Positions 2,240 through 25,643 of a stretch of 64,000 bases of DNA are shown here, one piece after another. Source of the stretch: Patescibacteria group bacterium (GTDB taxonomy: Bacteria; Patescibacteriota; Patescibacteriia; Patescibacteriales; UBA12465); the NCBI GenBank assembly GCA_041658665.1, contig JBAZZR010000001.1:64576-128575 (forward strand). The letters run 5' to 3'. The number at the start of each line of letters is the position of its first letter. The first letter of the stretch is position 1. Made by a program: the position numbers and the translations under genes. A model generated the notes under the pieces. It ran no database searches, was not told the origin of the DNA, and was given only the letters and a program-made list of their open reading frames with translations.

Positions 2240-2260
2240 ATTTGAAATAACTCAAATTTT

Positions 2261-4549: not shown

Positions 4550-4575
4550 ATTATCTTAATATTATTTTAGATAGT

Positions 4576-6071: not shown

Positions 6072-6080
6072 TGGTATAAT
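6072..6080 (+). promoter_or_regulatory. extended -10 promoter element TGGTATAAT upstream of gpmA
   Basis: TGnTATAAT match about 67 nt upstream of the ATG at 6147. Confidence 0.45.
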
Positions 6081-6146
6081 TTAAGATAGTTGTTTGGGTA
6101 TTTATTAGAGGAATAGCCATTTTATTAAGAGAAAAATTAATGAATT

Positions 6147-6896
6147 ATGTATAAAATTATTTTAATTAGACACGGCGAAAGCCTTTGGAATAAAAAAGGT
6201 TTATTTACCGGTTGGACGGACGTTAATTTAAGCTCGCAGGGAGTTAGGGAGGCTCAAGCGGCCGGTCGAGTGATCAAAAAAAATAAGCTGAGTTTTGATT
6301 TAGCCTTCACTTCTTTGTTAAAGAGAGCCACACGGACTCTTAAAATAGTCTTAGACGAACTTCAGCAGCCAAAAATTCCAGTAATTGTTGATTGGCGTTT
6401 GAATGAGCGGCATTATGGAAATTTACAGGGTTTAAATAAGCAACAAATGGTTGAAAAATTTGATGAGAAACAAGTTTTGATTTGGCGGCGCAGTTATGAT
6501 GTTCGGCCGCCGAAAATTGAAGCGACTAATAAATATAATCAGAAAAAAGAAGCGCGTTATCAGAATATCCCCGTTCCCGAAGCGGAAAGTTTAAAAGACG
6601 TAGTCGCCCGAGTCATTCCGTTTTGGCGAGAGAAGGTCGTGCCCGAAATAAAAAACGGTAAAAAAATAATAATTGCGGCTAGCGGTAATAGTCTAAGAGC
6701 TTTAATTAAGTATTTAGATAAGGTTTCTAAACAGGCGATAGTCGACTTAAATATCCCGACGGGCATTCCCTTGGTTTATGAATTAGACGCTAAGCTTCGG
6801 CCGATAAAACATTATTATTTAGCTGACCAAAAGAAATTGCAAGCGGCCATTGAGGCCGTTAAGAAGCAGGGGAATAAGGTGATAGGGAATAAATAA
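6147..6896 (+). CDS. gpmA: 2,3-bisphosphoglycerate-dependent phosphoglycerate mutase
   Basis: N-terminal LIRHGESLWNKKGLFTGWTDV (RHGE catalytic His motif), ERHYG, and overall dPGM length. Confidence 0.9.
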   Translation: MYKIILIRHGESLWNKKGLFTGWTDVNLSSQGVREAQAAGRVIKKNKLSFDLAFTSLLKRATRTLKIVLDELQQPKIPVIVDWRLNERHYGNLQGLNKQQMVEKFDEKQVLIWRRSYDVRPPKIEATNKYNQKKEARYQNIPVPEAESLKDVVARVIPFWREKVVPEIKNGKKIIIAASGNSLRALIKYLDKVSKQAIVDLNIPTGIPLVYELDAKLRPIKHYYLADQKKLQAAIEAVKKQGNKVIGNK

Positions 6897-6911
6897 CTAA
6901 TATTAGATATA

Positions 6912-6942
6912 AATACCTCATATTAATTATAGGTATTTTTTT
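6912..6942 (+). terminator. intrinsic terminator after gpmA
   Basis: AATACCT / AGGTATT stem followed by a T-run. Confidence 0.55.
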
Positions 6943-6958
6943 GATTGTTTTGTAAATA

Positions 6959-6987
6959 TTGACGTTGGGTTATCAATATACCATAAT
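6959..6987 (+). promoter_or_regulatory. sigma70-type promoter upstream of ORF 7037
   Basis: TTGACG, a 17-nt spacer and CATAAT. Confidence 0.45.
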
Positions 6988-7036
6988 TAATCATTAATCT
7001 AATTAATAGTTTTTTTCAAAACAAAAGGAGACAGTC

Positions 7037-7465
7037 ATGTACAAGCGTATTTTAATAGTGGTTTTTGTCGGAATTTTTTCTCTTATCGTATCAGCCCAAG
7101 CTAGATTCGTTGAAGATATCAGCGATTCAGCTGATATTGAAAAAGATTGTCTGGTTAAGATGATTTTTAGAGACTCCGGAGTAATATCCGCTCAGATGTC
7201 ACAATTTTCTGTGCCTGGTCACAAAATAAAGGAAGTTCGAATTTATTCGGACGATGGGAAAGGATATTTTGAATCTATTGCGATTATAGATCCGGGTTAT
7301 TCAGATATATCGTCCCGGGTCCAATCTCAGCTTTTGAACTTTTCTACTAGGGAATATCACGGGAGAAGATTCACGGAATTTCAGGATCGCGTTTCTTTAA
7401 ATTCGATGGTCCGACAACATTTAAAAAAAGGAGAGAACATTGAAATTGAGTTCTACCTTAAATAA
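7037..7465 (+). CDS. hypothetical secreted protein (142 aa)
   Basis: N-terminal signal-like segment ILIVVFVGIFSLIVSAQA. Strong GGAGA ribosome-binding site 6 nt upstream of the ATG. Confidence 0.55.
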   Translation: MYKRILIVVFVGIFSLIVSAQARFVEDISDSADIEKDCLVKMIFRDSGVISAQMSQFSVPGHKIKEVRIYSDDGKGYFESIAIIDPGYSDISSRVQSQLLNFSTREYHGRRFTEFQDRVSLNSMVRQHLKKGENIEIEFYLK

Positions 7466-7526
7466 AAGAATTCCCGACCAAAGAAAGCCCGATCAGTTTT
7501 AATCCTTCTGATCGGAAAAAACAAAA

Positions 7527-7556
7527 AAAGCTCGATAATAGTCGAGCTTTTTCTTT
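7527..7556. terminator. bidirectional intrinsic terminator
   Basis: AAAGCTCGA / TCGAGCTTT stem flanked by an A-run upstream and a T-run downstream. It serves the convergent genes 7037..7465 (+) and 7606..8517 (-). Confidence 0.7.
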
Positions 7557-7605
7557 AAATTTAGATTAAGTTTTAGCTGATCGCTAGGACGAATATTTTT
7601 TAAGA

Positions 7606-8517
7606 CTATTGAACAATAATTGGGAATGATTTTTTACTGCCATAAGCCTTCGGACCCTCTTGGCAGAATTTTTTAATATTTTTTTTAAAATAAGGCGTTT
7701 TAGATTCTTGGATTTTACCGATTAAATAATAACTTAGCGCCATAATTAGCGCTGGTCCGATTTTTTTTGGCAATTTAATTTCCCAGCGATTTTTCTGAGC
7801 CCCGAAATATTTATTTTCTCCGAAGCTGATTATTAATTCCTTATCCCAGTTATTGACGAATTTCGCATGGCGCGCTTCGCCAAAGCTAAAGGCGCGTAAT
7901 GATAAATAGGGGCCGAATAACTCATTCCTCTTTATTTCTAACATCGGGGCGACTGGGCCGAATTTATCCGGCAAGATAAAAGAATAAGCCGAATAATTTT
8001 TAAAATTATTAGGTAGTTTCAAACTTTGAATATATTTTTTAATCGTCGCCGTTTTTTCGCCGCTGGCGCCGAGAATCATCCCCAAATAGGTCGAAGTATT
8101 ATAAGTATAAGGTTCAGGTAATTTTTGATAGGTTAATACTTCGTCAGCAATTTTAGCAGCGCGGGAATTAGCGTTACAGGTTAAAAGCGTAGTTTTTAGA
8201 CCGCTTTTCTTCGCTAATTTTATTTCCCAAATTGAATCTTTTTCGCCCGAAGCCGAAATAATTATCGCTTGAGTAAGGTTTTTATTTTTTATCAGCGGTT
8301 GATAGCTTCTGAGGATATTTTTAAAATTACTTTCATTGGCGACTACGGCCGGTCGGTCACTAAAAATTAGTAGGCCGGTATTATAGGCATTACCGCTGCC
8401 GACGATAATTGGAAAAGAAAATTTTTTTAAATTTAAGCGGGGCGGTTGATTAAGGCTAAAGAAATCTAAGGCCGCTAAAACGCTTTCATCGAGATTGGCT
8501 AATTTTAGAGTTTTCAT
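7606..8517 (-). CDS. SIS-domain sugar isomerase-like protein (possibly bifunctional phosphoglucose/phosphomannose isomerase)
   Basis: SIS-like segments IIVGSGNAYNTG and AIIISASGEKDS with about 300 aa length. The family call is tentative. Confidence 0.45.
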   Translation of the reverse strand: MKTLKLANLDESVLAALDFFSLNQPPRLNLKKFSFPIIVGSGNAYNTGLLIFSDRPAVVANESNFKNILRSYQPLIKNKNLTQAIIISASGEKDSIWEIKLAKKSGLKTTLLTCNANSRAAKIADEVLTYQKLPEPYTYNTSTYLGMILGASGEKTATIKKYIQSLKLPNNFKNYSAYSFILPDKFGPVAPMLEIKRNELFGPYLSLRAFSFGEARHAKFVNNWDKELIISFGENKYFGAQKNRWEIKLPKKIGPALIMALSYYLIGKIQESKTPYFKKNIKKFCQEGPKAYGSKKSFPIIVQ

Positions 8518-8654
8518 AGAATATTTTTTTCGGCGTTTTTACTTTATTTTTCGCCTATTTTCATTATAATCTATCTTGATTTTTATTTCAATTTAGCCTA
8601 TGATGGGGGTATAATTTGTAACTAGTGAAGTTTGAAAATATTAAACTAAATTTT

Positions 8655-9374
8655 ATGTCCGGACATTCTAAATGGGCGACCACCCATCGTCAGAAAGAAT
8701 TAGTCGATGCTAAACGGGGAGCAATTTTTACTAAGTTTGCCAATGTTATTACGATTGCGGCTAAAAAAGGCGGCGACCCGAATACAAATCCGTCTCTGCG
8801 CGCAGCGGTTGATCGGGCGCGTGACGTCAGTATGCCTAAAGATAATATTGAGCGGGCGATTAAAAAGGGGACCGGCGAATTAGCGGGTGCGCAAATGGAG
8901 GAATTATATTATGAAGGAATTATTCCGCCAGGGGTGCAGGTCGTTGTTAAGTGTGTCACCGATAACAAGAATCGAAGTGGCTCGACGGTGCGCCATTCTT
9001 TCACTAAGAATGGGGGGGCTTTTGCCGCTGTCCTTTGGAATTTTCGGCAGTTAGGCGTTATCCGAGTAGCTGATGATTCTTTGCGGGAGAAAAAAATTAA
9101 TCTTGATGATCTAGAATTAGAATTAATTGATCGCGGCGGCCAAGATTTTGTGAAAGAGGAAGAGGGAATAACGGTCTACACGGAAATTAAAGATTTACAG
9201 TCAGTCCGCGAATATTTAGAAGCTAGAAATTTAAAAATTGCTAGCGCGGAAATCGAATACGTCGCTAAGGAGAAGGTAGAACTGAAAAAGGAAGACCAGG
9301 AAAAAATGGATAAATTTTTTGAAGAGATGGAGAATAATGAGGACGTGAGTGAATATTACTCTAATTTAGCCTAA
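8655..9374 (+). CDS. yebC: YebC/PmpR family DNA-binding regulator
   Basis: MSGHSKWATTHRQK...AKRG family signature. I prefer the ATG at 8655 over the GTG at 8625 in the ORF track. A TATAAT lies at 8610-8615. Confidence 0.9.
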   Translation: MSGHSKWATTHRQKELVDAKRGAIFTKFANVITIAAKKGGDPNTNPSLRAAVDRARDVSMPKDNIERAIKKGTGELAGAQMEELYYEGIIPPGVQVVVKCVTDNKNRSGSTVRHSFTKNGGAFAAVLWNFRQLGVIRVADDSLREKKINLDDLELELIDRGGQDFVKEEEGITVYTEIKDLQSVREYLEARNLKIASAEIEYVAKEKVELKKEDQEKMDKFFEEMENNEDVSEYYSNLA

Positions 9375-9388
9375 GGGTCGGACGCTAT

Positions 9389-9877
9389 ATGGAAAAAATA
9401 ATTTTAGGTCTTGATCCGGGGATTGCGGATACTGGCTATGGTCTGATTAAAGAAGCGGGCGGACATTTTTGTTGTTTAGCTTATGGTTCGATTAAGACTA
9501 AGGCGAGCGATGATTTAGTGGTTCGTTTAGAAATACTTCATCAAGAACTTGATCAGATTATTAAAAGATATCGGCCGGAGCTCGCGGCCGTTGAACAACT
9601 TTTTTTTAATAAAAATGTGCGGACGGCGCTAATCGTTGGTCAGGCACGCGGCGTTTCTTTATTAACTTTACGTCAGAACCGTTTAAAAATAATCGAATTT
9701 ACTCCCTCGCAAGTGAAACAAGCCGTGACGGCTTATGGCCAGGCCTCGAAAAAACAGGTACAGAAGATGGTGAAGCTTATTTTGAATTTAAAAGAGTTGC
9801 CACAGCCCGATGACGCGGCCGATGCTTTAGCTTTAGCAATTTGTGCTTCTAGTTCTAAATTATGCCTAAAAAATTAA
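9389..9877 (+). CDS. ruvC: crossover junction endodeoxyribonuclease RuvC
   Basis: ILGLDPGIADTGYG N-terminal motif. Length and the C-terminal DAADALALA motif are typical of RuvC. Confidence 0.9.
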   Translation: MEKIILGLDPGIADTGYGLIKEAGGHFCCLAYGSIKTKASDDLVVRLEILHQELDQIIKRYRPELAAVEQLFFNKNVRTALIVGQARGVSLLTLRQNRLKIIEFTPSQVKQAVTAYGQASKKQVQKMVKLILNLKELPQPDDAADALALAICASSSKLCLKN

Positions 9878-11334
9878 AAATTGTTCAAATCGCAGCGGAG
9901 GTTGCTCCTTTTTCTAAAACGGGCGGTTTAGGCGATGTGGCGCGGAGTTTGCCTAAGGCCCTCAGTCGTTTGAAGCAAGAAGTAATAATAATTACCCCGC
10001 TGTATGGCCGGCTAATTGATAAGCCAAAAAATAAATTAAAATTAATTTTTGCTAATGTTAATTTACGGCTTAATTCCGAAGAAACTATTCGGGTTAATTA
10101 TTGGCGCGGTTATTTAATGGACGGTTTGCCGATTTATTTTGTTGAATGCAAGAAATTTTTTTCTAAGCATAGTCGTCTTTACGGCTCGCGGCGCGAAAAC
10201 GCTCGTTTTTTAGTATTTAATGTGGCCGCTTTAAAATTATTGTCTTTATTAAAGTTTTCCGCCGACATTATTCATTGTCATGACTGGCAGACCGGCCTAA
10301 TCCCTTATTATTTAAAAACTGATTTTCGCTATTCTAAGACCTTGAAACAGGCCAAGACAATTTTTACTATTCATAATTTAATTTTTCAGTTGGGTCATAA
10401 TTGGTGGGAAATCGCTCCAGAGAATAAAGATTATGGTCGCAGCCGAATTCCCCATTTGAGTGATCCGCGTTTAGAGTATATTAATTTTGCGAAACGGGCG
10501 ATTTTGTCCGCCGACTATATTAATACAGTTAGTGAGCAATATCAGAAGGAAATCATGACTAAAAAATTTGGTCAGGATTTACACCGTATTTTAAAAAATC
10601 GCCGTGACCGGCTGCTGGGCATAATCAACGGCATTGATTATAATGCTTATAATCCGGAGAAAGATGAAGCAATCTATCGCCACTACTCTTATAAGCAACC
10701 TAAACTTAAAGTGGAGAATAAAATTTATCTCCAGAAGACTTTTCATTTACCGATTGATCGAAATATTCCGATTTTTTGTACGACTTCGCGGGTGACTTTT
10801 CAAAAGGGCTTTGCCTTATTAATTAAAGCGTTGCCGCGCTTAGTGGAGATGGCGGCGCAATTTATTATTGTGGGTGAAGGCGACCGTCACTATTTGCAAG
10901 AGTTACAAAAAATTGCTCGCAAGTATCCGAAAAAAATTGTGGTGATTCCGTCGCAAACCGCTATTCAGAAATACGAAACCCTCGTTTATGCGGGAGCGGA
11001 TTTTTTCCTATTACCTTCTAATCATGAGCCTTGTGGGATAAATCAATTAATTGCCATGCGTTATGGTTGTATCCCGATTGTTCGGGAAATTGGCGGTTTA
11101 TATGATACAGTTGATAATTTTTCGCCGGCTCTTAAAAGCGGCAATGGTTTTACGTTTAAAAATGAAGATGAGTTTGATTTGTACGCGGCAGTAGTGCGGG
11201 CGCTAGAAAATTATCAACATAAAACCGTCTGGTTCGCCTTAATTAAGCGAGCGATGAAACAGTCTAACGGCTGGGAAATACCGGCCAAAAAATATTTAGA
11301 ATTATATCGTCGAGTGAAAGGGTTGGTTAGTTAA
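9862..11334 (+). CDS. glgA: glycogen/starch synthase (GT5)
   Basis: KIVQIAAEVAPFSKTGGLGDV (KTGGL motif) and the C-terminal GT-B region EPCGINQL. Confidence 0.9.
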   Translation: MPKKLKIVQIAAEVAPFSKTGGLGDVARSLPKALSRLKQEVIIITPLYGRLIDKPKNKLKLIFANVNLRLNSEETIRVNYWRGYLMDGLPIYFVECKKFFSKHSRLYGSRRENARFLVFNVAALKLLSLLKFSADIIHCHDWQTGLIPYYLKTDFRYSKTLKQAKTIFTIHNLIFQLGHNWWEIAPENKDYGRSRIPHLSDPRLEYINFAKRAILSADYINTVSEQYQKEIMTKKFGQDLHRILKNRRDRLLGIINGIDYNAYNPEKDEAIYRHYSYKQPKLKVENKIYLQKTFHLPIDRNIPIFCTTSRVTFQKGFALLIKALPRLVEMAAQFIIVGEGDRHYLQELQKIARKYPKKIVVIPSQTAIQKYETLVYAGADFFLLPSNHEPCGINQLIAMRYGCIPIVREIGGLYDTVDNFSPALKSGNGFTFKNEDEFDLYAAVVRALENYQHKTVWFALIKRAMKQSNGWEIPAKKYLELYRRVKGLVS

Positions 11335-15957: not shown

Positions 15958-18504
15958 ATGTTTAGGGAAAATATCCAAAACGAGAAAGAACAAATGGCCG
16001 CTCGGACAAAAGAGGTTGAAGCGGATTTTCATGAGCAAAAAATGTCCCAGTTTTTAGAGAATCATGAGGTTATCTCTTATAAAGATGGAGATTGTGTTAT
16101 TGATGTGGAAAAGATAAAGAATTTTTCTGTTTCAAAAACTATTGATAAGCAATATTACTTTGATGGTGTAATACATTATATAACCAATGCTGATATTTTT
16201 GAATTTTTAAAAGATAAACAAGGCCGGGCTCAGACGGACGAAGAAACATCAGATAAATTTTTATTGTCGGACGAGGGGTCTTCTTTACCAAGGGCGGGCT
16301 TGGACGCTCGGGCAATAAGCGTTCAAGAGAATAAAAACCAAACAAGCCCGATAGTTGCTTTGCCTAAAAATATTTATGATGCTAAAAATGGCGATTTGGA
16401 TGAAGGGATATTAAAACCTTGGGAAGTAACCACTCATCCTGATTTTCGTCATAAGACAAAATTAACTGATGGCGCCGAAGCTTCTCTGGCGGATTTATTT
16501 TATCTTAATAAAATTAAAGAGGCCAAAATCCACCGTGATCAGACTGGTGCTTTGGTCTATTGGGATGGAGCAGATAATCAGTTTAAAAAATTTGTAGCCA
16601 CTCAGTCTGATAAAATTTTTCAGCGGCGGATAGTCTTCTCCGAGCAAGGTAAAAATTATTCTTTTCATGATAATACTAGCATGTTTATCAATAAATTTTT
16701 GCCGTTAGTTAAATCATTGAATCTTTTTGAGGCCGAAGATTTTCGCCGTGTTTCCGGGTCATCGACGGCTCAAACTTTATTAGCCCATGAAAGAAAAATT
16801 TTTGGTAGCCCTTATATTAATATTTCTAATAGCGCTAAGCATGCTCGTTATTATATTGGCCGGGATAAAATAGTCGGTACGGATCAAAAGATTAATGAGA
16901 ATATGAGAGCAGTAGAACTAGATCAAAATTTAGTCGGTGTCACTGAAGATTCTTTTGGTCGTCGTAAATTATTATATACTTTTCAGAAATTTAATGATCA
17001 AGAATATAAGAACTATGGCCTAGAAGATAAGGAAAGTTCTTATTGTCTGGTTTCGGGCAAAGAAATGAAAAAGCGGGTGAATGAATATCAAATATCAGAC
17101 TATTTGCCCCAACATAAAGACGAAAGCGCCGCTAATTATGCTAATCGTTTAGCTAATTTAAACGATGTTAAATTAACGAGCCGGACTTTTCGAGATCTGG
17201 CCTTGAAAGCGGAGACGCCGATTAATGATTTATCTTGGGCCGAGCAGCTTTTAATTACTAATTATGCTTTTGAAAGTAAAGATGAAAATAAATTATTAAA
17301 TTTTGTTAAGCAGTATAAAGTTGATGGCTTGCGATCGCTTATTACCGCCGAAGTAGATCAGAGGGCGGGAGACAAAATTATGGCTATTAGTGAAAAATTA
17401 CCATTTGCTCAAGCGAAGACGGTTTTTGAAAAGATTAGTGGCCTTAATCAGATGGCTACCCGTAAAGCAGATGAACTGGTCGACGTTTTTTTTGACGCCG
17501 AACGCGGCCAGGCGCCGCTCATGATGAGTGTTCATAAGGCGTTACTCAAAAAGACAAGCGAAATTGTCACGGCTTTTTATGAACACCTGAAGAAGGATGA
17601 TAATATTGAAGATTTATTGAGTGAGCTGGAGAAATGTAAGGCTGAAATGATTATGCTGGCTTCGGTCTTGAAAGAAGGAAAACTACAAGGAGAAAAAATT
17701 GATTTAGAAACGATTAGAGATTTAAATTTGGAAATAAAAGATTATGGTCAAGATATTGCCGAGCCGGATAAGAAGAATATTTTAAAGATTGCCCAGGCCA
17801 ATTGGAAAAATTTTGGTAATGACAAGATGGCCCAGGTAGTTTATGACGGTTTAGTCGAGACTTTGAACCAGGCTCAAGAGCAAAAGGCTTATATTTTAAA
17901 ATATAAAGATGAGGTGATCGGTTTTGTCCGTTTTGAGCGGACTAGCCACGGTACGGTTTATGCTGGGTCTCTTAATGTTTCCAAGGATTTGCGAGGTTTA
18001 TCGATTGGCAATGAGTTAATGGAGAAAGCGCTCCTGAAAGAAGGGGAACTTAATATTTTGGAAGCCTCAGCTTCTATTAAAATTCCGGCGGGCTGTAATT
18101 ATATTGAGAAAATTGGTTTTATCGCTGATGGCCTAATCGTAGATTATCACGGCACAGGTGAAAATTTACTGTCCATTAAATTAGATAAGGAAAAGAATAA
18201 AGAGTATAGTTTGCGTAATGAAGGAAAAGATAAGTTGCTTAGTTCAAGGGAATTGCAGGAAGCCATTAATGATTATAAACAATTGGATAATTTAATGGGC
18301 CGACCATATATTGTTTTACGTTTTGACTTGAATACGGAAATGGCCGAATATCAAGCAGCTTTGAGCCGACTTTTGCCCCAGGTTGATGATAATTTAAAAC
18401 CGCTAGAAGATAAGCAGGGGAAATATACTCTGACTCGTTATTTTTATGATAAGAATGAAGATCCGAAAGGCAATATTCGTTATTTGGTTTTTGAAAAAAA
18501 TTAA
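15958..18504 (+). CDS. large orphan protein (848 aa) with C-terminal GNAT acetyltransferase-like domain
   Basis: The GNAT-like segment VIGFVRFERTSHGTVYAGSLNVSKDLRGLSIGNELMEKAL lies near residues 650-700. No motif is recognised in the first ~600 aa. No TM or signal peptide. Confidence 0.65.
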   Translation: MFRENIQNEKEQMAARTKEVEADFHEQKMSQFLENHEVISYKDGDCVIDVEKIKNFSVSKTIDKQYYFDGVIHYITNADIFEFLKDKQGRAQTDEETSDKFLLSDEGSSLPRAGLDARAISVQENKNQTSPIVALPKNIYDAKNGDLDEGILKPWEVTTHPDFRHKTKLTDGAEASLADLFYLNKIKEAKIHRDQTGALVYWDGADNQFKKFVATQSDKIFQRRIVFSEQGKNYSFHDNTSMFINKFLPLVKSLNLFEAEDFRRVSGSSTAQTLLAHERKIFGSPYINISNSAKHARYYIGRDKIVGTDQKINENMRAVELDQNLVGVTEDSFGRRKLLYTFQKFNDQEYKNYGLEDKESSYCLVSGKEMKKRVNEYQISDYLPQHKDESAANYANRLANLNDVKLTSRTFRDLALKAETPINDLSWAEQLLITNYAFESKDENKLLNFVKQYKVDGLRSLITAEVDQRAGDKIMAISEKLPFAQAKTVFEKISGLNQMATRKADELVDVFFDAERGQAPLMMSVHKALLKKTSEIVTAFYEHLKKDDNIEDLLSELEKCKAEMIMLASVLKEGKLQGEKIDLETIRDLNLEIKDYGQDIAEPDKKNILKIAQANWKNFGNDKMAQVVYDGLVETLNQAQEQKAYILKYKDEVIGFVRFERTSHGTVYAGSLNVSKDLRGLSIGNELMEKALLKEGELNILEASASIKIPAGCNYIEKIGFIADGLIVDYHGTGENLLSIKLDKEKNKEYSLRNEGKDKLLSSRELQEAINDYKQLDNLMGRPYIVLRFDLNTEMAEYQAALSRLLPQVDDNLKPLEDKQGKYTLTRYFYDKNEDPKGNIRYLVFEKN

Positions 18505-19328
18505 TTAGTGTCACTTATGTTTCCTTCTTTAGCTCTTGTTTCGGCCGGAGCTTTTGTTTGTTGAGCTTTAATAGTGCTGGCCAAATTTTCCCAAATATAT
18601 TCGAATAGTAGTTTATTCATTTGATAAATATTTTTATCTTCGATGACAATAGCCATTTTGTTATCTGACGAAACCACTTGATATGAGACTTTATTATCAT
18701 AGATTTGGACACCGCTACTAAAGTTATAGAATTCCGGAGCGAGAAAGCGAAATTCGGTAATTAAACTGTTAAAATTTTTGAGAAATTGGCGATTGAAAGA
18801 AGTATCAGCGATGATAATCTTTTTTTTAATGGCAGTCTTTTCGCGTTTCTTAGAATAGGCGTCGTTAATATCTTTGATATTTTTTTCTACCGCTTCAATA
18901 TCGGCAAAAGTATAAATGGTCGTTCGACTAGCCAAAGTGTCATTGAGACTTTTTTCAATACCCTCCTCTCCTTCATAAAATTTTACTCCCGGCTTATTGC
19001 TAATTAAACTATAAGCCGAAACTAGATCGGGCAGGGCACTAATAAATTCTTTTTTGTGTTTAATGGCGTCTTTTTCTTTTTGATCGGCAATCGTTTCGAG
19101 GCCGGATGGGTGTTCAGCCGAAAAGATAGTAATACCTTTAACTTCCTCGGTTTTAGATACTAGATTAAGCTTAATTAATTCATCCAAGCCTTTATAAGCG
19201 ACCCCCCGGGGTCTTTTTATTTTTTTGGCGATATTACTGGCTTTATCCGGACCCTGGTTTAGGAGACAGTCCAGGATTTCAGCCTGAACCTTGGATAAAC
19301 CGAGATTATAGAGGGTTTTTTCAAACAT
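18501..19328 (-). CDS. TrmB-family transcriptional regulator
   Basis: N-terminal wHTH LGLSKVQAEILDCLLNQGPDKASNIAKKIKRPRGVAYKGLDELIKLNLV. Its 3' end overlaps the convergent 848-aa gene by 4 nt. Confidence 0.7.
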   Translation of the reverse strand: MFEKTLYNLGLSKVQAEILDCLLNQGPDKASNIAKKIKRPRGVAYKGLDELIKLNLVSKTEEVKGITIFSAEHPSGLETIADQKEKDAIKHKKEFISALPDLVSAYSLISNKPGVKFYEGEEGIEKSLNDTLASRTTIYTFADIEAVEKNIKDINDAYSKKREKTAIKKKIIIADTSFNRQFLKNFNSLITEFRFLAPEFYNFSSGVQIYDNKVSYQVVSSDNKMAIVIEDKNIYQMNKLLFEYIWENLASTIKAQQTKAPAETRAKEGNISDTN

Positions 19329-19446
19329 ATATTTGGACTTCCTGAGGTTATTAGCCTTTAAGTGTGGCTTATAACCTGTGGAAAACTTTACAAAAATTAA
19401 ATTTTGTTTTGTTAATTATTTAAAGAGATACTTATCCTATAGCTAT

Positions 19447-19475
19447 ATTATAGCGCATATTGTAACTAGTGTCAA
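19447..19475 (-). promoter_or_regulatory. perfect-consensus sigma70 promoter for the TrmB-like gene
   Basis: The minus strand reads TTGACA (19475-19470), a 17-nt spacer and TATAAT (19452-19447). Confidence 0.7.
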
Positions 19476-19570
19476 CTTTTAAAAAGACAAAAAAATAAAA
19501 TAAATAGGCCTATTTTAAGCATCTCTGTATATATTTTTGTAACATTTGCTAAAAATAGTCTTTTTAAGTA

Positions 19571-19599
19571 TTGACAATAATCTAAAACAATGCTAAACT
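19571..19599 (+). promoter_or_regulatory. sigma70 promoter driving the island RNA
   Basis: TTGACA (19571-19576), a 17-nt spacer and TAAACT (19594-19599). Predicted start near 19606. Confidence 0.65.
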
Positions 19600-19605
19600 T
19601 AAGGT

Positions 19606-20400
19606 ATCGAAAATGAGAAAGGAAAGAGACGGGCAAAACAAGTACATTACATTCAAATAAAATAATGGAAGGAGAGAGTCATTATTAATCACGATACTAT
19701 TACTTCTATAACAAGGGTACTAGGCGGATTGAGCTTTCTCATTCTATATAGAGACAGATTTTTCCGCCCAGTACCCTTTTTGGTCAAAAAACGGAGCGGA
19801 TAGTCCTGAAGAGGAGAGAGGTTTAGCCGCTGCCTTAGTGCCCACAGCCTAAGGCGGAACTAAATAGTAAGAATGGTTATTAGGAATAGAAATATTAATG
19901 GTTAGCGCCACCCCATGTTGCTAGCCAGAGTTCCCGCCGGGCCATTTAACGAACTCCCCTTCATAACTATCCGCTTCAAGCGGAAACCGAAGCGACTACG
20001 GGATAGTTGCCCCAATTATTTAGGGAATAAATAACAGTTAAACTAATTTGTCAATTTTGGGAGATTAAATGGACACATAAGCTTTAGAAATAAAGTGGAG
20101 AGGGTTCATCTCCTGAGATTAACAAAAGTTTGACAGTTTGCTTCCGGATTAAATCCGGAATCAGGCGCCAAGTGAGTCAGGGCCAAGAAGCGTCGCAAAC
20201 CGCTTCAAGGTCGAGACGATCTTAGTACGGCGTGGCTCAGTTATCCGCCAGCTGGCGGATGAGCAAGCTCCCGGGACAGCACTAACGCCACCGTCTTCTT
20301 ACGAGGAGATCGGCTGAGCCCTAAACCTTGAACAAGCTTAGGCCCAGAAATTTCCTCGGAAAAATATAAGTTTGAGAGGGAAGAGTTCTTTAAATTATTT
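19606..20400 (+). ncRNA. candidate large structured non-coding RNA (~0.8 kb, unclassified)
   Basis: No ORF of 60 aa or more on either strand in the supplied track. Local GC by hand count is 35/60, 38/60 and 30/60 for the lines starting 20161, 20221 and 20281, against an AT-rich background. There are many verified hairpins (19715-19776, 19832-19855, 19973-19993, 20142-20160, 20187-20206, 20243-20260). The 3' boundary is uncertain. Confidence 0.6.
19715..19781 (+). terminator. terminator-like or attenuator hairpin inside the island RNA leader
   Basis: GGGTACTAGGCGGA ... TCCGCCCAGTACCC (14 bp, one mismatch) followed by TTTTT. It could end a ~175-nt sRNA or act as an attenuator. Confidence 0.4.
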
Positions 20401-20422
20401 CACAACAAAAAAGGAGTTCCGC

Positions 20423-20650
20423 GTGAGTAAAGTAAGCGCGGGAAGACATATGAGTGATATTCAATTAGCATTAATCAATGCGGGTTTAGTTAGTTCGCAG
20501 AAAATTAATGAAATCAATCGCCAGAAGGCGATTGATACAGAGTTTGTTAGAACCGCTAAAAAAGCGGTTCCCGGAGCCGGACGGAAAATCTGGCAAAAGT
20601 ACGCCGACCTGAAAAGGCGCGCTTCGAAAAATTTACAGTTTATCTATTAA
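20423..20650 (+). CDS. small basic protein (~75 aa), orphan
   Basis: AAGGAG at 20411-20416, 6 nt before the in-frame GTG at 20423; an ATG at 20450 is an alternative start. Lys/Arg-rich sequence ...RKIWQKYADLKRRASKNL. Confidence 0.5.
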   Translation: MSKVSAGRHMSDIQLALINAGLVSSQKINEINRQKAIDTEFVRTAKKAVPGAGRKIWQKYADLKRRASKNLQFIY

Positions 20651-20865
20651 ACTGTAAAAAAAATTTCTAAAAAAAGTTTCTAAAAACGCCGATATGCGGC
20701 ACGATTCCTAAGTTTCCGGCTTACCTCCAAGGTATCAAAGGGCTGTTTAGAAGGAATCAAAAATTTTAAATTAGTTTAGCTTATTCTGATTACAAAAAAT
20801 AAGCAGGCCATCCTACCGGACCGCCGAGGCTATCACTACGCCTGAAGTGTCCACCAAAGTTTAAA

Positions 20866-20943
20866 GAGCAGTGTCGTTCAAACATTGCTCTCCCTCCCGG
20901 GATGTGCGTCTCGGCTGATGAGTCGAAAATGACGAAAGGGAAG
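20866..20943 (+). ncRNA. type III hammerhead ribozyme, copy 1, with a 5'-adjacent hairpin
   Basis: Core: UCCCU-C (C17 at 20896). Stem I is CCGGGA/UCUCGG with loop UGUGCG. CUGAUGA at 20915-20921. Stem II is GUC-GAAAAU-GAC. GAAA at 20934-20937. Stem III is GGGA pairing with UCCC. Predicted cleavage falls between 20896 and 20897. The upstream hairpin is 20866-20890. Confidence 0.85.
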
Positions 20944-20986
20944 AACATTTACAACTAAATAGACAGTAATTTCATTTTTTGACTGA

Positions 20987-21048
20987 TTTATTTTAGTTAT
21001 TATTTTTAAAGTTTTAAAAAAGACTTTAGGGATAATAACTAAAATAAA
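20987..21048 (+). repeat. conserved AT-rich long hairpin (copy 1) between the ribozyme and the downstream start codon
   Basis: Arms TTTATTTTAGTTATTAT / ATAATAACTAAAATAAA form 17 perfect bp. The homologous copy at 24167-24225 carries compensatory changes. Confidence 0.7.
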
Positions 21049-21060
21049 AAGGAATATAAA

Positions 21061-21918
21061 ATGAAAGAAAAATATTATTTAATTAGCGATGATCTTGTTT
21101 TGTCTGAGCAAGAATTCGTTAATAAGTACAAAGTGTCTCGCGCGACTTACTATCGTGCCAAAAAGTCCGGCTATTTCATGCTGGAATATCATAAGAGGGA
21201 GATTGAGATAAATAGTGTTTTTGTTGAAAATAATTTGGCGTTAATATTTGAGTGCGCCAAGATGGCGTCGTATATTGTAGCGAGGAGATACTGGGGTCCT
21301 CTTTATTGGAGAGAAATTCAAAAAAAGTTTGGCATCACAACCGTCGACTTCCGTGATGAGGCGTTTTTGAGAATTGTTGAAAGGAGTGCGCATATTGCTG
21401 AAAAAACAGCTGGTGCTAGCGATAGCTCAAGACGTTGTTATATGCTAAAAGCCGCAAAATACGCGGTGCAGGAGTTTATTTCATTAAAACTATTTCGTTA
21501 TAGTGATAGGAATAGTCGTTTTGACGAAGAAAATAACGAAGAGGATGATAGGAGCGGTAGGATCTTTTCCTATGATCCAACCAATGAAATACATGCGCGC
21601 GTTGACACAATGGGTTCTAGAACTGAAAAAATTATCCGCTTATTAAACGAAAATGAGCGGAAAATATTTTTGGCCATCTGCGCTGGCTGGGATAGGGAGG
21701 AAATAGCGTTTCTAGATAACATAGATAACATTACGTCCACTGAAATATTAGATCGGATTAAAAAAATAATTAAAAAAATCCGGCTATTGTATGGAATTAG
21801 TGAGGGAAGAGTTGATTGGTATCCGCCTAAAACGGATAAAAATCACTCAGAAGAATTGCGTCAACTTCGTAAGAAAGTAGCGCAATATCTAAATGAAAAT
21901 TCTGTTCACTTAGTGTAA
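21061..21918 (+). CDS. divergent sigma-70-like / HTH DNA-binding protein
   Basis: N-terminal HTH (KVSRATYYRAKKSG). The C-terminal segment LNENERKIFLAICAGWDREEIA...ILDRIKKIIKKIR resembles sigma-70 region 4. FRDEAFLRIVERS resembles region 2. No database check was possible. Confidence 0.45.
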   Translation: MKEKYYLISDDLVLSEQEFVNKYKVSRATYYRAKKSGYFMLEYHKREIEINSVFVENNLALIFECAKMASYIVARRYWGPLYWREIQKKFGITTVDFRDEAFLRIVERSAHIAEKTAGASDSSRRCYMLKAAKYAVQEFISLKLFRYSDRNSRFDEENNEEDDRSGRIFSYDPTNEIHARVDTMGSRTEKIIRLLNENERKIFLAICAGWDREEIAFLDNIDNITSTEILDRIKKIIKKIRLLYGISEGRVDWYPPKTDKNHSEELRQLRKKVAQYLNENSVHLV

Positions 21919-21953
21919 AAATTAATCAATAAAAATAAAAAGGAGTCACAATC

Positions 21954-22706
21954 ATGGTTACGAAGGCGAAAGCAATTTTATTGTCAACGGAATTTATTAA
22001 TGGTTTAACTCAATTTATTCCGCAATTTTGTAGTGGTGAAGTAGTTTGGGATAATTATCACGCTTCCGCACTCTGCGGCGGGACATTAATCCCGGTTATA
22101 TTTAAATTCCGGGCGGGCGAGAAACCATCTACAGATCAGGCCTATAATGTAATAGTTTCCTCCGCGCGCGGCGACCAAGCTCGCCGGGAAAATCGAGCGA
22201 CGATTGATCACTGGGAATTGAAGTTTTATCCAGTGGGAGTCGATGAAGCAAAAAATAAATTTTATTTTCTAAGCTGTAAATTTGACGAAGAAATAGAATT
22301 TGAAAATCGAAAAGTCCCTGAAAATATAATCCGTTTCAAGGGGGTCAGTATGAAGGGAGTCATTTTTTCCCAACCGATTGGAGTTGAACCTAAATATGAT
22401 ATCCAATTAGTAACAACTGAAGTCGTATTTGACAGTTCGGTTATGCTACGTCTTGAAGGAGCGCAAACAAAAATTTTGCGTGGGCATAAGATAATAGAAA
22501 AAAAAGATAAATTTTTATCAATAGTCATCTACGATCATCGTAAAGTTTATGATGTCGTGGCTCAATGTTGTCATGAACGAAAAATTCTCAGTAATGGTCG
22601 AGTATTTGACTATTATAAACTCCACAATTTTATCGATGACGGACGTGGAGTTAATCATATTCTCACCGCTGACGGTATTTCAGCGGTAGAAGAAACGGTA
22701 GTTTAG
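21954..22706 (+). CDS. orphan protein (250 aa)
   Basis: AAGGAG ribosome-binding site 7 nt upstream. No TM, signal peptide or recognisable motif. Confidence 0.6.
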   Translation: MVTKAKAILLSTEFINGLTQFIPQFCSGEVVWDNYHASALCGGTLIPVIFKFRAGEKPSTDQAYNVIVSSARGDQARRENRATIDHWELKFYPVGVDEAKNKFYFLSCKFDEEIEFENRKVPENIIRFKGVSMKGVIFSQPIGVEPKYDIQLVTTEVVFDSSVMLRLEGAQTKILRGHKIIEKKDKFLSIVIYDHRKVYDVVAQCCHERKILSNGRVFDYYKLHNFIDDGRGVNHILTADGISAVEETVV

Positions 22707-22717
22707 TGCTAAGTTCT

Positions 22718-22800
22718 GCAGATTAGTTTGTTCAACTAATCTGCCTCTTTTCAAGGGCAGTAAAAATTTTAGTGCCCTTGAAATCGGATTCTTTAATAAC
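22718..22800 (+). terminator. double-hairpin terminator-like module, copy A
   Basis: Hairpin 1 is GCAGATTAGT/ACTAATCTGC followed by CTCTTTTC. Hairpin 2 is TCAAGGGCA/TGCCCTTGA with a loop GTAAAAATTTTAG. The homologous module is at 25404-25470. Confidence 0.55.
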
Positions 22801-22827
22801 GTGAGTCAGAAATAATCTTTATTTCAC

Positions 22828-22885
22828 AATATTGGACAGTACTTTGAATATATTTTAATAAATATTTAGAGTACTGCCCAATATT
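22828..22885 (+). promoter_or_regulatory. internal promoter bracketed by 16-nt inverted repeats (candidate operator)
   Basis: TTGAAT (22844-22849), a 17-nt spacer and TAGAGT (22867-22872). It is flanked by AATATTGGACAGTACT (22828-22843) and AGTACTGCCCAATATT (22870-22885), which match at 15 of 16 positions as an inverted repeat. Confidence 0.45.
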
Positions 22886-22971
22886 AGGCAGGGTCAGCCA
22901 ATGTCCAGTCGTAGTCCGTAAAAAAATAATTAGGACCAGACAAATGACAACGGCAAAAACAAGGAGTAGAA

Positions 22972-23550
22972 ATGAGAACTTATTTTTGGAATCGCGGTAG
23001 CTTAATCCCCGGTATATCCGTCACTAAAGATGATAAACTAGGCTTTATAGTTTATCTCGGTGAGGATGGGCGAGGTAGACGTTATGAAAAAGTTGGTCTA
23101 CTGAGAAATAACCCGGCGGAAATTATAGATGGGAAAATTTTTGAAGCTCATCCGGTTAGAATTACCGTTGGTAAAGGTACGGACAAAGAAAGAAATTTTT
23201 TTGTTCTCGCCAAGTCGATCGACAACGCCGATCCCCGTGTTATTGTCCATGTAAATACGGAATGTGTTTACACCCGCGACACTGTAGGTAAATGGACAAT
23301 GAAAGTCGGGGCCCCAGAAACCATAGTTAAGGCCTATGGCGCTCACGGAATTGCTGGCCGGATTGGTAATTGGGATGACGGGTTGATATTAATGAAACCA
23401 GGAGATGTTTTGGAGATTCGCCCGGAAGGTGGTCATAAGGTAGATTCCTACGCGCTATTTTTCGATGCGGAAGGAATCTTAACATCCATGGTTTGGAAAG
23501 ATTACGAAGCTATGCAAGCTATTTCCGGCGGGGAGGTAGATTGGTTATGA
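22972..23550 (+). CDS. orphan protein (192 aa)
   Basis: AAGGAG ribosome-binding site upstream. The stop codon overlaps the next start (ATGA at 23547-23550). Confidence 0.6.
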   Translation: MRTYFWNRGSLIPGISVTKDDKLGFIVYLGEDGRGRRYEKVGLLRNNPAEIIDGKIFEAHPVRITVGKGTDKERNFFVLAKSIDNADPRVIVHVNTECVYTRDTVGKWTMKVGAPETIVKAYGAHGIAGRIGNWDDGLILMKPGDVLEIRPEGGHKVDSYALFFDAEGILTSMVWKDYEAMQAISGGEVDWL

Positions 23551-24008
23551 AAACATTAAAATGTTTTACTCTGTCTGGGAAAGACGTTTCTCCCGTGATT
23601 AAAATGGAAAAAGGAAAAATTTCCTGTTGGGGTGGGCCCGGTCAACCCGACATTCCTTTCGTTTATGCTCTAAATCCTGAAGTAAACGAATATAGTATTG
23701 CTAATATCGGTAAAAAAACTAATCAATTTTTTTTACAAATTGGTGAAGGAGAAGTTGACCAGCATCAAACCCTAGTTTTTGTCCATGAATATTTTAATGG
23801 GTCTGGTGCAAAAAGATGGCCCGGTTTCCACATTGATTGGAATAATGCCGGACAAGTGGAAATTTTGATTCAGACCCAGCGCCACTATGGGAGCGGTTCC
23901 GATACTTGGTCGTTAATCATCGCTCCACACGGCTGGGTAGAAAATATTGCCGCTCAATTTATTGATGAGCGAGATTATCCGAGTCAGATTATTTCCTACA
24001 AATTGTAA
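23547..24008 (+). CDS. orphan protein (153 aa), translationally coupled to the upstream ORF
   Basis: ATG at 23547 preceded by GGAGG at 23532-23536. The ORF-track start at 23493 lies inside the upstream gene and has no ribosome-binding site. Confidence 0.55.
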   Translation: MKTLKCFTLSGKDVSPVIKMEKGKISCWGGPGQPDIPFVYALNPEVNEYSIANIGKKTNQFFLQIGEGEVDQHQTLVFVHEYFNGSGAKRWPGFHIDWNNAGQVEILIQTQRHYGSGSDTWSLIIAPHGWVENIAAQFIDERDYPSQIISYKL

Positions 24009-24060
24009 TTTTAGAGTAGGGTCGGCTGTATAAAATCTGGGGGCACTTAAGTTCAAAATT

Positions 24061-24139
24061 GAGCAGCTTTTGTTCAAAAGCTGCTCTCCCTCCCGAGATG
24101 CGTGTCTCGGCTGATGAGTCCGAAAGGACGAAAGGGAAG
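24061..24139 (+). ncRNA. type III hammerhead ribozyme, copy 2, with a 5'-adjacent hairpin
   Basis: Upstream hairpin GAGCAGCTTTT/AAAAGCTGCTC (24061-24086). UCCCU-C (C17 at 24092). Stem I is CCGAGA/UCUCGG. CUGAUGA at 24111-24117. Stem II is GUCC-GAAA-GGAC. GAAA at 24130-24133. Stem III is GGGA. Predicted cleavage falls between 24092 and 24093. Confidence 0.88.
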
Positions 24140-24166
24140 GACCTTAAAAATTAAATAAGACTATGA

Positions 24167-24225
24167 TTATTTAGTTACTATTTTTGAAGTTTTAAAAAAA
24201 GACTTTAGAGATAGTAACTAAATAA
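24167..24225 (+). repeat. conserved AT-rich long hairpin (copy 2)
   Basis: Arms TTATTTAGTTACTAT / ATAGTAACTAAATAA form 15 perfect bp. The T-to-C change on one arm is matched by an A-to-G change on the other, relative to copy 1. Confidence 0.7.
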
Positions 24226-24274
24226 TAAAAATCAAAAAATCCGCGGTCCCGACGTATTCGGGCAAGGAGAAAAA

Positions 24275-25403: not shown

Positions 25404-25470
25404 GGAGGTTAGTCAACTAACCTCCCCTTTTCCAAGTGCGATAAAATTTTAGCGCTTTTGGAATTCGATT
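25404..25470 (+). terminator. double-hairpin terminator-like module, copy B
   Basis: Hairpin 1 is GGAGGTTAG/CTAACCTCC followed by CCTTTTCC. Hairpin 2 is CCAAGTGCG/CGCTTTTGG with a loop ATAAAATTTTAG. Confidence 0.55.
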
Positions 25471-25476
25471 TTTTAA

Positions 25477-25581
25477 CCGCCTTTGAAGCGTAGAGCGGAA
25501 AAGACAGAGACATTATTAAACTCTCTCTCCTTAATATTGTACTTTCTTTTCACGACGCTCTACACTTGAGGGGCGGTTTTT
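25477..25581 (+). terminator. long imperfect hairpin plus T5 at the right edge of the island
   Basis: CCGCCTTTGAAGCGTAGAGCG (25477-25497) pairs imperfectly with CGCTCTACACTTGAGGGGCGG (25556-25576), followed by TTTTT. Confidence 0.5.
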
Positions 25582-25589
25582 GTTATAAT
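25581..25589 (+). promoter_or_regulatory. extended -10 element TGTTATAAT upstream of ftsK
   Basis: TGnTATAAT, 55 nt upstream of the ATG at 25644. Confidence 0.45.
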
Positions 25590-25643
25590 AAAAGCGGAAT
25601 CATCAGAGACCGCCTAAAATAATGGTTTCTCAATTTTTTATTT

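Follow-up and report, generated by a model that had tools for sequence, protein, structure and literature searches.

Two co-oriented hammerhead ribozymes as predicted punctuation of a variable operon in a Patescibacteria chromosome

The window analysed here is a stretch of 64,000 nucleotides (nt) from the core chromosome of a Patescibacteria (Candidate Phyla Radiation, CPR) metagenome-assembled genome (MAG), assembly GCA_041658665.1, contig JBAZZR010000001.1. Between a TrmB-like gene and ftsK it contains a small island. The island begins with a promoter and a structured leader RNA, followed by a small open reading frame (ORF), five larger orphan ORFs (A to E) and two hammerhead ribozyme motifs (Table 1). 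Both motifs lie in intergenic gaps and on the coding strand. One precedes ORF A and the other separates ORF D from ORF E, and a segment with four ORFs is enclosed between them. A preliminary description of the same DNA had proposed that cleavage at both motifs would release this segment as an RNA that could be circularised or, more conservatively, that the ribozymes serve as operon processing sites.

The two hammerhead motifs and their surroundings

Both motifs match the Rfam family RF00008 (Hammerhead_3, clan CL00010) on the plus strand over its full length. Hammerhead 1 aligns with model positions 1-54 at 34.4 bits (E-value 2.3e-6 in an Rfam scan of a 111-nt stretch), and hammerhead 2 scores 35.4 bits (E-value 1.3e-6). 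Rfam scans of the whole window missed both of them, with the gathering scores as well as with E-values, and reported only a tRNA and a tRNA-like element. An annotation based on Rfam would thus omit the two ribozymes. Copy 1 reads UCCCUC↓CCGGGA-UGUGCG-UCUCGG-CUGAUGA-GUC-GAAAAU-GAC-GAAA-GGGA and copy 2 reads UCCCUC↓CCGAGA-UGCGUG-UCUCGG-CUGAUGA-GUCC-GAAA-GGAC-GAAA-GGGA, with the arrow at the predicted cleavage site. The catalytic core is complete in both, comprising C3-U4-G5-A6-U7-G8-A9, G12-A13-A14, the A15.1-U16.1 pair and C17. At the cleavage site, A15.1-U16.1 is accompanied by a nucleotide other than G at H17, namely the C17 that corresponds to position 20896 in copy 1 and 24092 in copy 2. 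The Rfam alignment and the RNAalifold consensus both show loops on stems I and II and an open stem III, which is the type III topology. A purpose-written motif finder gives 7, 4 and 5 base pairs (bp) for stems I, II and III. Compensatory changes are observed between the copies: a G.U pair of stem I becomes A-U, and the fourth pair of stem II changes from G.U to C-G.

The two motifs also stand out within the window. CUGAUGA followed by GAAA 4-30 nt downstream occurs five times against 0.73 expected, and the helices are present in these two occurrences only. We built a covariance model from seven copies of the ribozyme together with the hairpin just upstream. Run on both strands with its filters off, the model returns exactly two copies in the window, at 101 and 107.6 bits, with the next best match at 17 bits; it detects no further hammerhead and none on the minus strand of the window. 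In an alignment of 48 relatives, which was itself fitted to the covariance model and whose covariation figures are to be read with this in mind, 98.1% of the paired cells are complementary, compared with 72.4% in shuffles and at most 51% in slid controls. Double changes are found at 21 of the 24 pairs, and none of 500 shuffles reaches the observed pairing. Stem I is freely variable among these relatives. The RF00008 matches, the core and the covariation confirm the two same-orientation hammerheads where the preliminary description had placed them. Judged from sequence and covariation, the two motifs are genuine type III hammerheads in the same orientation, and their self-cleavage is predicted. 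Cleavage after C20896 and C24092 would release the fragment 20897-24092; its length of 3,196 nt had been calculated correctly.

One could argue from the scores below the Rfam gathering threshold that the hammerheads are inactive relics without present function. This is almost certainly not the case, as all core nucleotides are intact in both copies and in nearly all relatives, the stems are maintained through compensatory changes, and both loop I and the position relative to genes are conserved.

Table 1. Features of the island and its borders in the window, in order along the plus strand
Feature	Coordinates	Strand	Remarks
TrmB-like gene	18501-19328	-	divergent from the island
Promoter-like site TTGACA-17-TGnTAAACT	19571-19599	+	consensus scan; divergent from the promoter of the TrmB-like gene
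Structured leader RNA	19606-20422	+	nucleotide identity, six-genome alignment, Alifold
Leader hairpin AUAAUGG-AAGGAGAGAG-UCAUUAU	19662-19685	+	loop complementary to the loop of the terminal hairpin
Leader hairpin with loop CUUGAACAA	20321-20341	+	inside the conserved helix 20302-20359; complement of the GUUCAA loops
Small ORF, 75 amino acids (aa)	20423-20650	+	GTG start behind AAGGAG; conserved in L044
GUUCAA-loop hairpin	20865-20891	+	abuts stem III of hammerhead 1; would-be 3' end of the upstream fragment
Hammerhead 1	20889-20943	+	type III; predicted cleavage between C20896 and C20897
AU-rich hairpin, about 28 bp, perfect	20988-21047	+	5' untranslated region (UTR) of ORF A
ORF A, 285 aa	21061-21918	+	orphan; weak signal of extracytoplasmic function (ECF) sigma factor and helix-turn-helix (HTH) type
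ORF B, 250 aa	21954-22706	+	orphan
Orphan GUUCAA hairpin and second hairpin	22718-22744; 22750-22782	+	"terminator-like module" of the preliminary description
Long imperfect hairpin	22829-22884	+	upstream of ORF C
ORF C, 192 aa	22972-23550	+	orphan
ORF D, 153 aa	23547-24008	+	orphan; ATG at 23547, 4-nt overlap with the stop of ORF C
GUUCAA-loop hairpin	24061-24086	+	abuts stem III of hammerhead 2; would-be 3' end of the 3,196-nt fragment
Hammerhead 2	24085-24139	+	type III; predicted cleavage between C24092 and C24093
Second long AU-rich hairpin	24167-24225	+	compensatory changes relative to copy 1
5' UTR motif GCGGUCCCGACGUAUUCGGGCAAGGAG	24243-24269	+	small hairpin and Shine-Dalgarno sequence
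ORF E, 370 aa	24275-25387	+	orphan; downstream of hammerhead 2
Terminator-like hairpin	25404-25425	+	end of the unit
Terminal hairpin, 100 nt, then U-run	25477-25576	+	apical loop carries CUCUCUCCUU (25523-25532)
ftsK promoter and gene	after 25576

The four ORFs of the 3,196-nt unit have ribosome-binding sites. ORFs A to E and the small ORF match no family in Pfam, PHROGs, NCBIfam or PADLOC. For ORF A, one close homologue was found among 5.8 billion proteins and 15 remote homologues among 1.84 billion representatives. Four of these 15 relatives match Sigma70_r2 and two match Sigma70_r4, and the family profile built from them matches the ECF sigma factor SigL (6dv9_F) with an E-value of 4.8e-4. 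The protein itself matches no family, and ORF A alone gave no significant match in the PDB (E 0.8, to an HTH of the LuxR type). The description of ORF A as sigma-like, which had been proposed earlier, is thus weakly supported by its relatives and its family profile, and not by the protein itself.

The remainder of the window carries typical chromosomal genes, encoding a histidine phosphatase, YebC, RuvC, glycogen synthase (GlgA), a GH57 protein, a kinase, a cation efflux protein, FtsK, an ECF sigma factor, a Mur ligase, RpoB, RpoC, MurJ, LepA, RecJ, RNase H, pyruvate:ferredoxin oxidoreductase subunits and LeuRS. The RNase H gene stands alone (RVT_3/RNase_H, 50368-50775, plus strand). It does not encode a reverse transcriptase and is the only reverse-transcriptase-related match in the window. 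A tRNA-like element of about 70 nt (60215-60286, minus strand) has an acceptor stem, a T-arm and a CCA-like end. It matches both ends of the transfer-messenger RNA (tmRNA) model (26.4 bits) and the mascRNA model (35.7 bits), both below the gathering scores, and could represent either an unusual tRNA or the tRNA-like portion of a tmRNA.

The transcription unit and its leader

The promoter in front of the leader is conserved at this chromosomal site, its -35 element and TGCTAAACT being invariant across six genomes (the window included). A consensus scan detected no comparable plus-strand promoter between the two ribozymes, and terminators on the unit are found only after ORF E. With a single conserved promoter and terminators only at this end, release of the 3,196-nt RNA is a reasonable prediction, and the two ribozymes look like parts of one transcription unit.

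This depends on read-through of the module at 22718-22800, which the preliminary description had regarded as terminator-like. Its first hairpin (22718-22744) is a paralogue of the GUUCAA-loop hairpins that adjoin the hammerheads. The stem is AU-rich, and the module tail CUCUUUUC is a weak U-tract. The CUGAUGA core is absent from 22718-22800, and an Rfam E-value scan of 22690-22980 returned noise only, with no ribozyme and no known RNA family. As the plus strand shows no promoter-like site from the module to ORF C, transcription of ORFs C and D presumably requires read-through. A related island, L095 (loci are given by their L numbers), contains an equivalent two-hairpin module and, about 75 nt further downstream within one intergenic region, a hammerhead. 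As the hammerhead follows the hairpin pair, the pair must be read through there. The module is probably not an efficient terminator.

The leader is more conserved than the genes that flank it, with a nucleotide identity of 79-85% to L002 and L003. Its 3' domain forms 100 consensus pairs in Alifold, 29 of them with compensatory changes, and its 3' element reads GAGGAGAUCGGCYGAGCC...CCUUGAACAAG. No Rfam family matches the leader, and an E-value scan of 19330-21070 gave noise only. The length is about 0.8 kb and increases to about 1.3 kb in some genomes, where modules are inserted. Leaders of this kind are located at 3885-5250 in L044, at 5150-6525 (minus strand) in L003, at about 8600-10000 (minus strand) in L094, L095 and L096, and also in L027, L041, L048 and L092. 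The leader may represent an undescribed large RNA of Patescibacteria.

Three intergenic RNA regions of the unit fold far better than shuffled sequences, with z-scores from -7 to -8.4. In three copies of the long hairpins (two from the window and one from L003), all eight of the mismatches seen at the DNA level are G.U pairs on the plus strand, which identifies these hairpins as structures of the sense-strand RNA. The hairpins at 20988-21047, 24167-24225 and 22829-22884 are AU-rich, perfect or near-perfect, 23-29 bp long and located just 5' of ribosome-binding sites. Their length is sufficient for RNase III substrates. Another element of the 5' UTRs is portable. The motif GCGGYCCCGACGUAUUCGGGCAAGGA, found at 24243-24269 in the window, recurs twice in L002 (2340-2366 and 3384-3410) and once in L003 (about 801-827, minus strand), and precedes unrelated genes in the three genomes. 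At the end of the unit (25477-25600 in the window), the U-run of the terminal hairpin overlaps the -10 box TTATAAT of ftsK, and the same arrangement is present in L001 at 3230-3370. Termination of the island and initiation at ftsK are physically coupled by this overlap.

Variable islands and the hairpin-hammerhead module

Six genomes share the arrangement of promoter, leader and variable island between the TrmB-like regulator and FtsK. In a blastn comparison of the window, L002/L001 and L003, the TrmB-like gene, the leader and FtsK are common and the genes between them are not. We retrieved L094, L095 and L096 via homologues of the TrmB-like protein. They keep the core synteny, with a leader gap of 1.2-1.4 kb, then a variable island and then FtsK; the sequence of L095 stops before FtsK. 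The covariance model detects 3, 4 and 2 hammerheads in the islands of L094, L095 and L096, respectively, all of them co-oriented with the island genes. Altogether, arrays of 2-5 co-oriented hammerheads occupy the islands of five related genomes. Neighbouring hammerheads in the islands are separated by segments of 367-3,211 nt; in L034, an array of the same family, segments reach 5,195 nt. The locus offers a natural series: at one chromosomal site in a clade of Patescibacteria, 2-5 ribozymes punctuate a fast-changing island behind a conserved leader.

Gene content of the island differs among the six genomes. Elsewhere the islands encode an AAA-Csx3 fusion, a stand-alone Csx3-like protein, a DEAD-box helicase, a Band_7 protein and a radical SAM protein, and the remaining genes are orphans. 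The AAA-Csx3 fusion (PADLOC C3a67, E 1e-50) occurs in related islands and is split in L094 into an AAA part and a 103-aa Csx3-like protein. Such defence-like or RNA-related genes are found at 1532-3232 (minus strand) in L095, at about 6500-8221 (plus strand) in L044, and at 6454-6765 and 6868-7458 (minus strand) in L094. In the relatives they occupy segments bounded by hammerheads, and the island of the window contains orphans only.

A pattern scan with one genome per species found the same ribozyme in two Patescibacteria MAGs only, one with L001 and L002 on a single contig and the other with L003. The covariance model added divergent copies in L001 and L003. The same kind of scan yielded 85 loci in metagenomes. 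Among viral contigs it gave five matches, and a related hairpin-hammerhead is present on one of these contigs only, L007 (IMGVR_UViG_3300042356_000309), which is predicted to be viral. L007 carries two co-oriented hammerheads about 400 nt apart, at 4544-4627 and 4954-4980 on the plus strand, the first with a hairpin in front; L088 is an identical sequence. The module is thus not confined to chromosomal islands. Our literature search found no paper linking hammerheads with Patescibacteria.

Most hammerheads are directly preceded by a hairpin with a GUUCAA loop. All nine pairs of this hairpin covary among the 48 relatives. Within the clade that carries the islands, and in the closest relatives of this clade, the hairpin is fused to the hammerhead, its 3' end directly adjoining the 5' strand of stem III. 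We counted the orientation of neighbouring ORFs for 50 distinct family members, after removal of duplicate contigs. Of 45 upstream ORFs, 39 point in the same direction as the hammerhead (p 5e-7; median gap 102 nt), as opposed to 23 of 37 downstream ORFs, a proportion that is not significant. A similar result is obtained outside the TrmB-FtsK islands (31 of 37 upstream, 15 of 29 downstream). By these counts the module looks like an element of gene 3' ends. Likewise, the recurring 103-aa Csx3-like and 130-aa protein families always have a hammerhead directly 3' of the gene, despite changed neighbours.

With moderate confidence, we favour the reading that the two hammerheads punctuate one long operon transcript and give rise to linear products with structured ends. 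Transcription would start at the conserved promoter near 19600 and proceed through the leader, the small ORF, hammerhead 1, ORFs A-D, hammerhead 2 and ORF E to the terminators before ftsK. Each hammerhead would fold and cleave itself during synthesis. Three linear RNAs would result: the leader with the small ORF, the 3,196-nt message of ORFs A-D, and the message of ORF E. At the 3' end of an upstream product, the GUUCAA-loop hairpin would be followed by UCCCUC with a 2',3'-cyclic phosphate. A downstream product would begin with a 5'-OH on the compact fold of stem I, core and stem II. The adjoining hairpin could stack on the short stem III, help the ribozyme to fold and insulate it from upstream sequence. 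As the cleaved pieces would be joined by the 4-5 bp of stem III alone, the products should separate and cleavage should be irreversible. In this way the segments would gain independent stability and translation. Whether the ends stabilise or destabilise a segment would depend on the RNases of the organism. In Bacillus subtilis, RNase J1 degrades the 5'-OH fragment that the glmS ribozyme leaves behind.

The more conservative part of the preliminary description, operon processing sites with structured ends, fits the arrays of 2-5 hammerheads in five genomes and with the covarying hairpin that abuts the ribozyme. Seen as a 3'-end module, "processing" also becomes testable, as 3'-end formation without a terminator or a protein nuclease.

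Several points weigh against the punctuation model. Both hammerheads score below the RF00008 gathering score of 48.5 bits. The pattern used to sample metagenomes fixed stem II and the first bases of stem III, and the orientation statistics rest on naive longest-ORF calls. Some A-D transcripts might begin downstream of hammerhead 1, at a weak promoter-like site (TTGACT-16-TATTTT, 20979-21006) that precedes ORF A. Lastly, the model does not explain the strong conservation of the GUUCAA loops and the leader loops.

The turnover of island genes raises a different possibility, namely that the hairpin-hammerhead modules are primarily counterparts of integron attC sites and form the joints between the cassettes of a mobile array, with RNA cleavage being secondary. 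Cassettes would be gained, lost and shuffled by recombination between the repeats of about 90 nt or through an RNA intermediate. The content of the islands is indeed almost wholly different despite flanks that are 75-85% identical. The genes for AAA-Csx3, the 103-aa Csx3-like protein, the 130-aa family and the DEAD helicase are reordered, each keeping its hammerhead on the 3' side. Furthermore, paralogous modules occur within one array, module similarity begins at the hairpin, and hammerheads of other bacteria are often located near integrases or prophages (PMC3088659). Nevertheless, we regard this as decidedly unlikely. No integrase, transposase, reverse transcriptase or phage gene was found among the window ORFs of at least 90 aa. 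Purifying selection acts on the RNA structure, both core and helices, with G.U pairs on the sense strand only, which would be unneeded for a DNA site. The sole indel that could be mapped, between the window and L003, ends inside the 3' end of ORF A and in a long hairpin, and not in a hammerhead. Recombination would in any case be expected at any conserved repeat, without a dedicated function.

The loops that the punctuation model leaves unexplained suggest an extension of the processing scheme, in which the leader acts as a hub and binds the 3'-terminal hairpin of each fragment by kissing loops. The UUGAAC of the leader would pair with the GUUCAA hairpins, and AAGGAGAGAG with the terminal loop that carries CUCUCUCCUU. 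Such contacts could serve to protect the pieces, to bring them to the same place or to regulate them jointly, or could steer how the long transcript folds and is read through. AAGGAGAGAG is the exact 10-nt complement of CUCUCUCCUU, and UUGAAC complements GUUCAA over 6-8 nt. Duplex energies are predicted at -15.2 kcal/mol for the 10 bp and at -6.4 to -7.5 kcal/mol for 6-7 bp. The stem of the hairpin at 19662-19685 varies in L041, L027 and L048 with its loop kept. The loop CUUGAACAA is invariant in ten loci and replaced by CUUGAAUAA in L048, and here too the stems vary. GUUCAA-loop hairpins, whose stems covary around the fixed loop, are found almost only next to island hammerheads, 15 of 17 on the strand of the island transcript; the chromosome flanks contain none in the window and one in the other loci. 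In 398 kb of loci, sense AAGGAGAGAG lies upstream of the hammerheads in 14 of 14 cases and sense CUCUCUCCUU downstream in five of five, where about 0.4 occurrences of a given 10-mer would be expected by chance and the loci were oriented by their hammerheads. All three GGAGAGAG sites of the 64-kb window fall in this locus.

Even so, the hub is unlikely on the present evidence. We looked for covariation between partner loops and found none, the loops being merely conserved. Where the hairpin loops deviate, in L041 (GUUCAU), L046 (GUUCUA) and L048, the leader loop does not follow. In about a quarter of cases, a leader of 1.3 kb would be expected to contain the complement of a 6-mer by chance. AAGGAGAGAG and CUCUCUCCUU are similar to Shine-Dalgarno and anti-Shine-Dalgarno sequences and may each be conserved for ribosome-related reasons; some of the upstream matches are plain ribosome-binding sites (L019, L011). 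The strand signal from wobble pairs and mismatches in the outer stem of the UUGAAC hairpin is mixed, pointing to the minus strand in the window and L044 and to the plus strand in L094-L096, and the surrounding helix and the promoter favour the plus strand. We treat the complementarity of the loops as a lead, not a result. Should it prove real, the leader would represent a large bacterial RNA of a new type, one that organises the RNAs produced when the ribozymes cleave.

Circularisation and comparison with known systems

The preliminary description went further and proposed that the 3,196-nt RNA could be joined into a circle. Joining might be achieved by an RtcB-type ligase or by the reverse hammerhead reaction, and the product would be a circular mRNA or a retrozyme-like or viroid-like element. 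The predicted ends, a 5'-OH and a 2',3'-cyclic phosphate, are the substrates of RtcB-type ligases, and a precedent is provided by cellular tRNA ligases, which circularise hammerhead-flanked retrozyme RNAs (PMC7229834). In addition, the stem III strands are identical in both window copies (UCCCU/AGGGA), so pairing between the 3' tail and the 5' region of one and the same fragment could restore a complete hammerhead. This part of the earlier proposal holds, but the hybrid would not be composed of two halves. Copy 2 would supply only the 5' strand of stem III with C17 (UCCCUC) and the flanking hairpin. The rest of the hybrid (stems I and II, the entire core and the 3' strand of stem III) would derive from copy 1.

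The relatives allow this idea to be examined by comparison. A hybrid rebuilt from the ends of a segment is compatible in the window, L044/L046, L003, L094 and L041. Neighbouring stem III strands are not complementary in L096, L027, L043 and two of the three segments of L095. The two stem IIIs of L096, CCGUC/ACGG and CCAUC/AUGG, are each compensated in cis, and their hybrid is mismatched next to the core. In L095, one ribozyme has UCUGUC/ACAGA and its neighbours have CCCUC/AGGG. In the compatible cases all copies carry the family consensus of stem III, except in L094. There all three hammerheads share a derived stem III (UCCUC/AGGAA), as selection for cross-compatibility would give; gene conversion would give the same. 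Changes in stem III are thus compensated within each ribozyme, which leaves several hybrids of neighbours mismatched and indicates that selection acts on cleavage in cis. These incompatible neighbours constitute a comparative argument against circularisation, which has been proposed repeatedly.

Other observations point in the same direction. Many family members are single and have a convergent downstream gene. The repeats flanking the unit cover the RNA modules only (86 nt at 84% and 63 nt at 75% identity), and the whole module copies of the window are 65% identical with gaps. The unit is single-copy with four ORFs, public data contain no more than 2 close and 15 remote relatives of ORF A, and there is no minus-strand ribozyme. 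The difference between the window and L003 is an indel of about 21899-24210 whose ends are not at the cleavage sites. ORF A of L003 has a hammerhead upstream only; on its downstream side the portable 5' UTR motif comes next, with a gene that is unrelated. A stem III of 5 bp favours release of the products. The earlier suggestion to check for rtcB gave a negative answer for the window, as neither RtcB nor reverse transcriptase nor integrase is encoded among its ORFs of at least 90 aa. Perreault et al. (2011) sought circular or spliced products of clustered bacterial hammerheads and detected none (PMC3088659). Taken together, a circular form is highly improbable. Circularisation as a selected property is disfavoured, and the analogy to retrozymes and viroids is unsupported, given the short diverged repeats, the four ORFs, the lack of a minus-strand ribozyme and the incompatible stem IIIs.

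The proposals could also be combined into one organised RNA system. Here the leader loops would complement the 3' loops of every segment, the modules would double as joints for cassette exchange and, in the strongest form, the leader would capture the segments or these would even be circularised. We consider this very unlikely. If the strongest form were true, capture or circularisation would be part of cassette regulation or mobility in CPR bacteria.

Within the punctuation model, the closest known systems are the hammerhead arrays described by Perreault et al. (PMC3088659). In bacterial and prophage operons, multiple hammerheads flank genes or short gene blocks, as in the triple array at ardA of Agrobacterium tumefaciens and in Clostridium scindens and Azorhizobium caulinodans. 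All ribozymes of three arrays cleave in vitro, and one array was also shown to cleave in E. coli. Processing into operon-length or gene-length mRNAs was proposed, with circular or spliced products raised as an alternative (PMC3088659). Clustered bacterial hammerheads have been known since 2011. The present locus agrees with these arrays in having several co-oriented intergenic hammerheads in one polycistronic unit, in the changing identity of the flanked genes and in the proposed role of cutting a long transcript. It differs in several respects. The host is a Patescibacteria (CPR) chromosome with no integrase or prophage genes nearby, the array occupies a fixed chromosomal site behind a conserved structured leader, and most ribozymes form a unit with a covarying upstream hairpin whose GUUCAA loop is invariable. 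Across the family, the association is with the 3' side of the preceding gene. The fused hairpin, the fixed site, the leader and the host group appear to be undescribed. Compared with RF00008, the core, the three helices and the type III topology agree over the full length of the model. However, stem II is a minimal 4-bp GUCC-GAAA-GGAC, loop I is a conserved (A)UGYGYG(U), and stem III is merely 4-5 bp long and continued by the adjoining hairpin. Such arrays are probably under-annotated in CPR genomes because their hammerheads fall below the Rfam thresholds.

Integron arrays share with this island the mostly promoterless, co-oriented genes behind one promoter, the fixed locus and the structured repeat that ends each cassette. 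In contrast to integrons, no integrase gene is present in the window or among the called genes of L094-L096. The repeat here is a catalytic RNA under selection at the RNA level and not an attC site, and the mapped indel is not bounded by repeats.

Retrozymes are non-coding, roughly 0.2-1.1 kb in length and multi-copy; they have long near-identical repeats and target-site duplications and are detected as circles. The unit described here, in contrast, measures 3.2 kb, contains four ORFs, is single-copy and has short diverged repeats. Viroid-like RNAs differ from it by a ribozyme on the opposite strand. What the unit has in common with retrozymes and viroid-like RNAs (Cervera and de la Pena 2020, PMC7229834; reviewed in PMC6765202) is the presence of two same-sense hammerheads, predicted ends that can be ligated, and the reconstruction of a ribozyme that joining of these ends would bring about.

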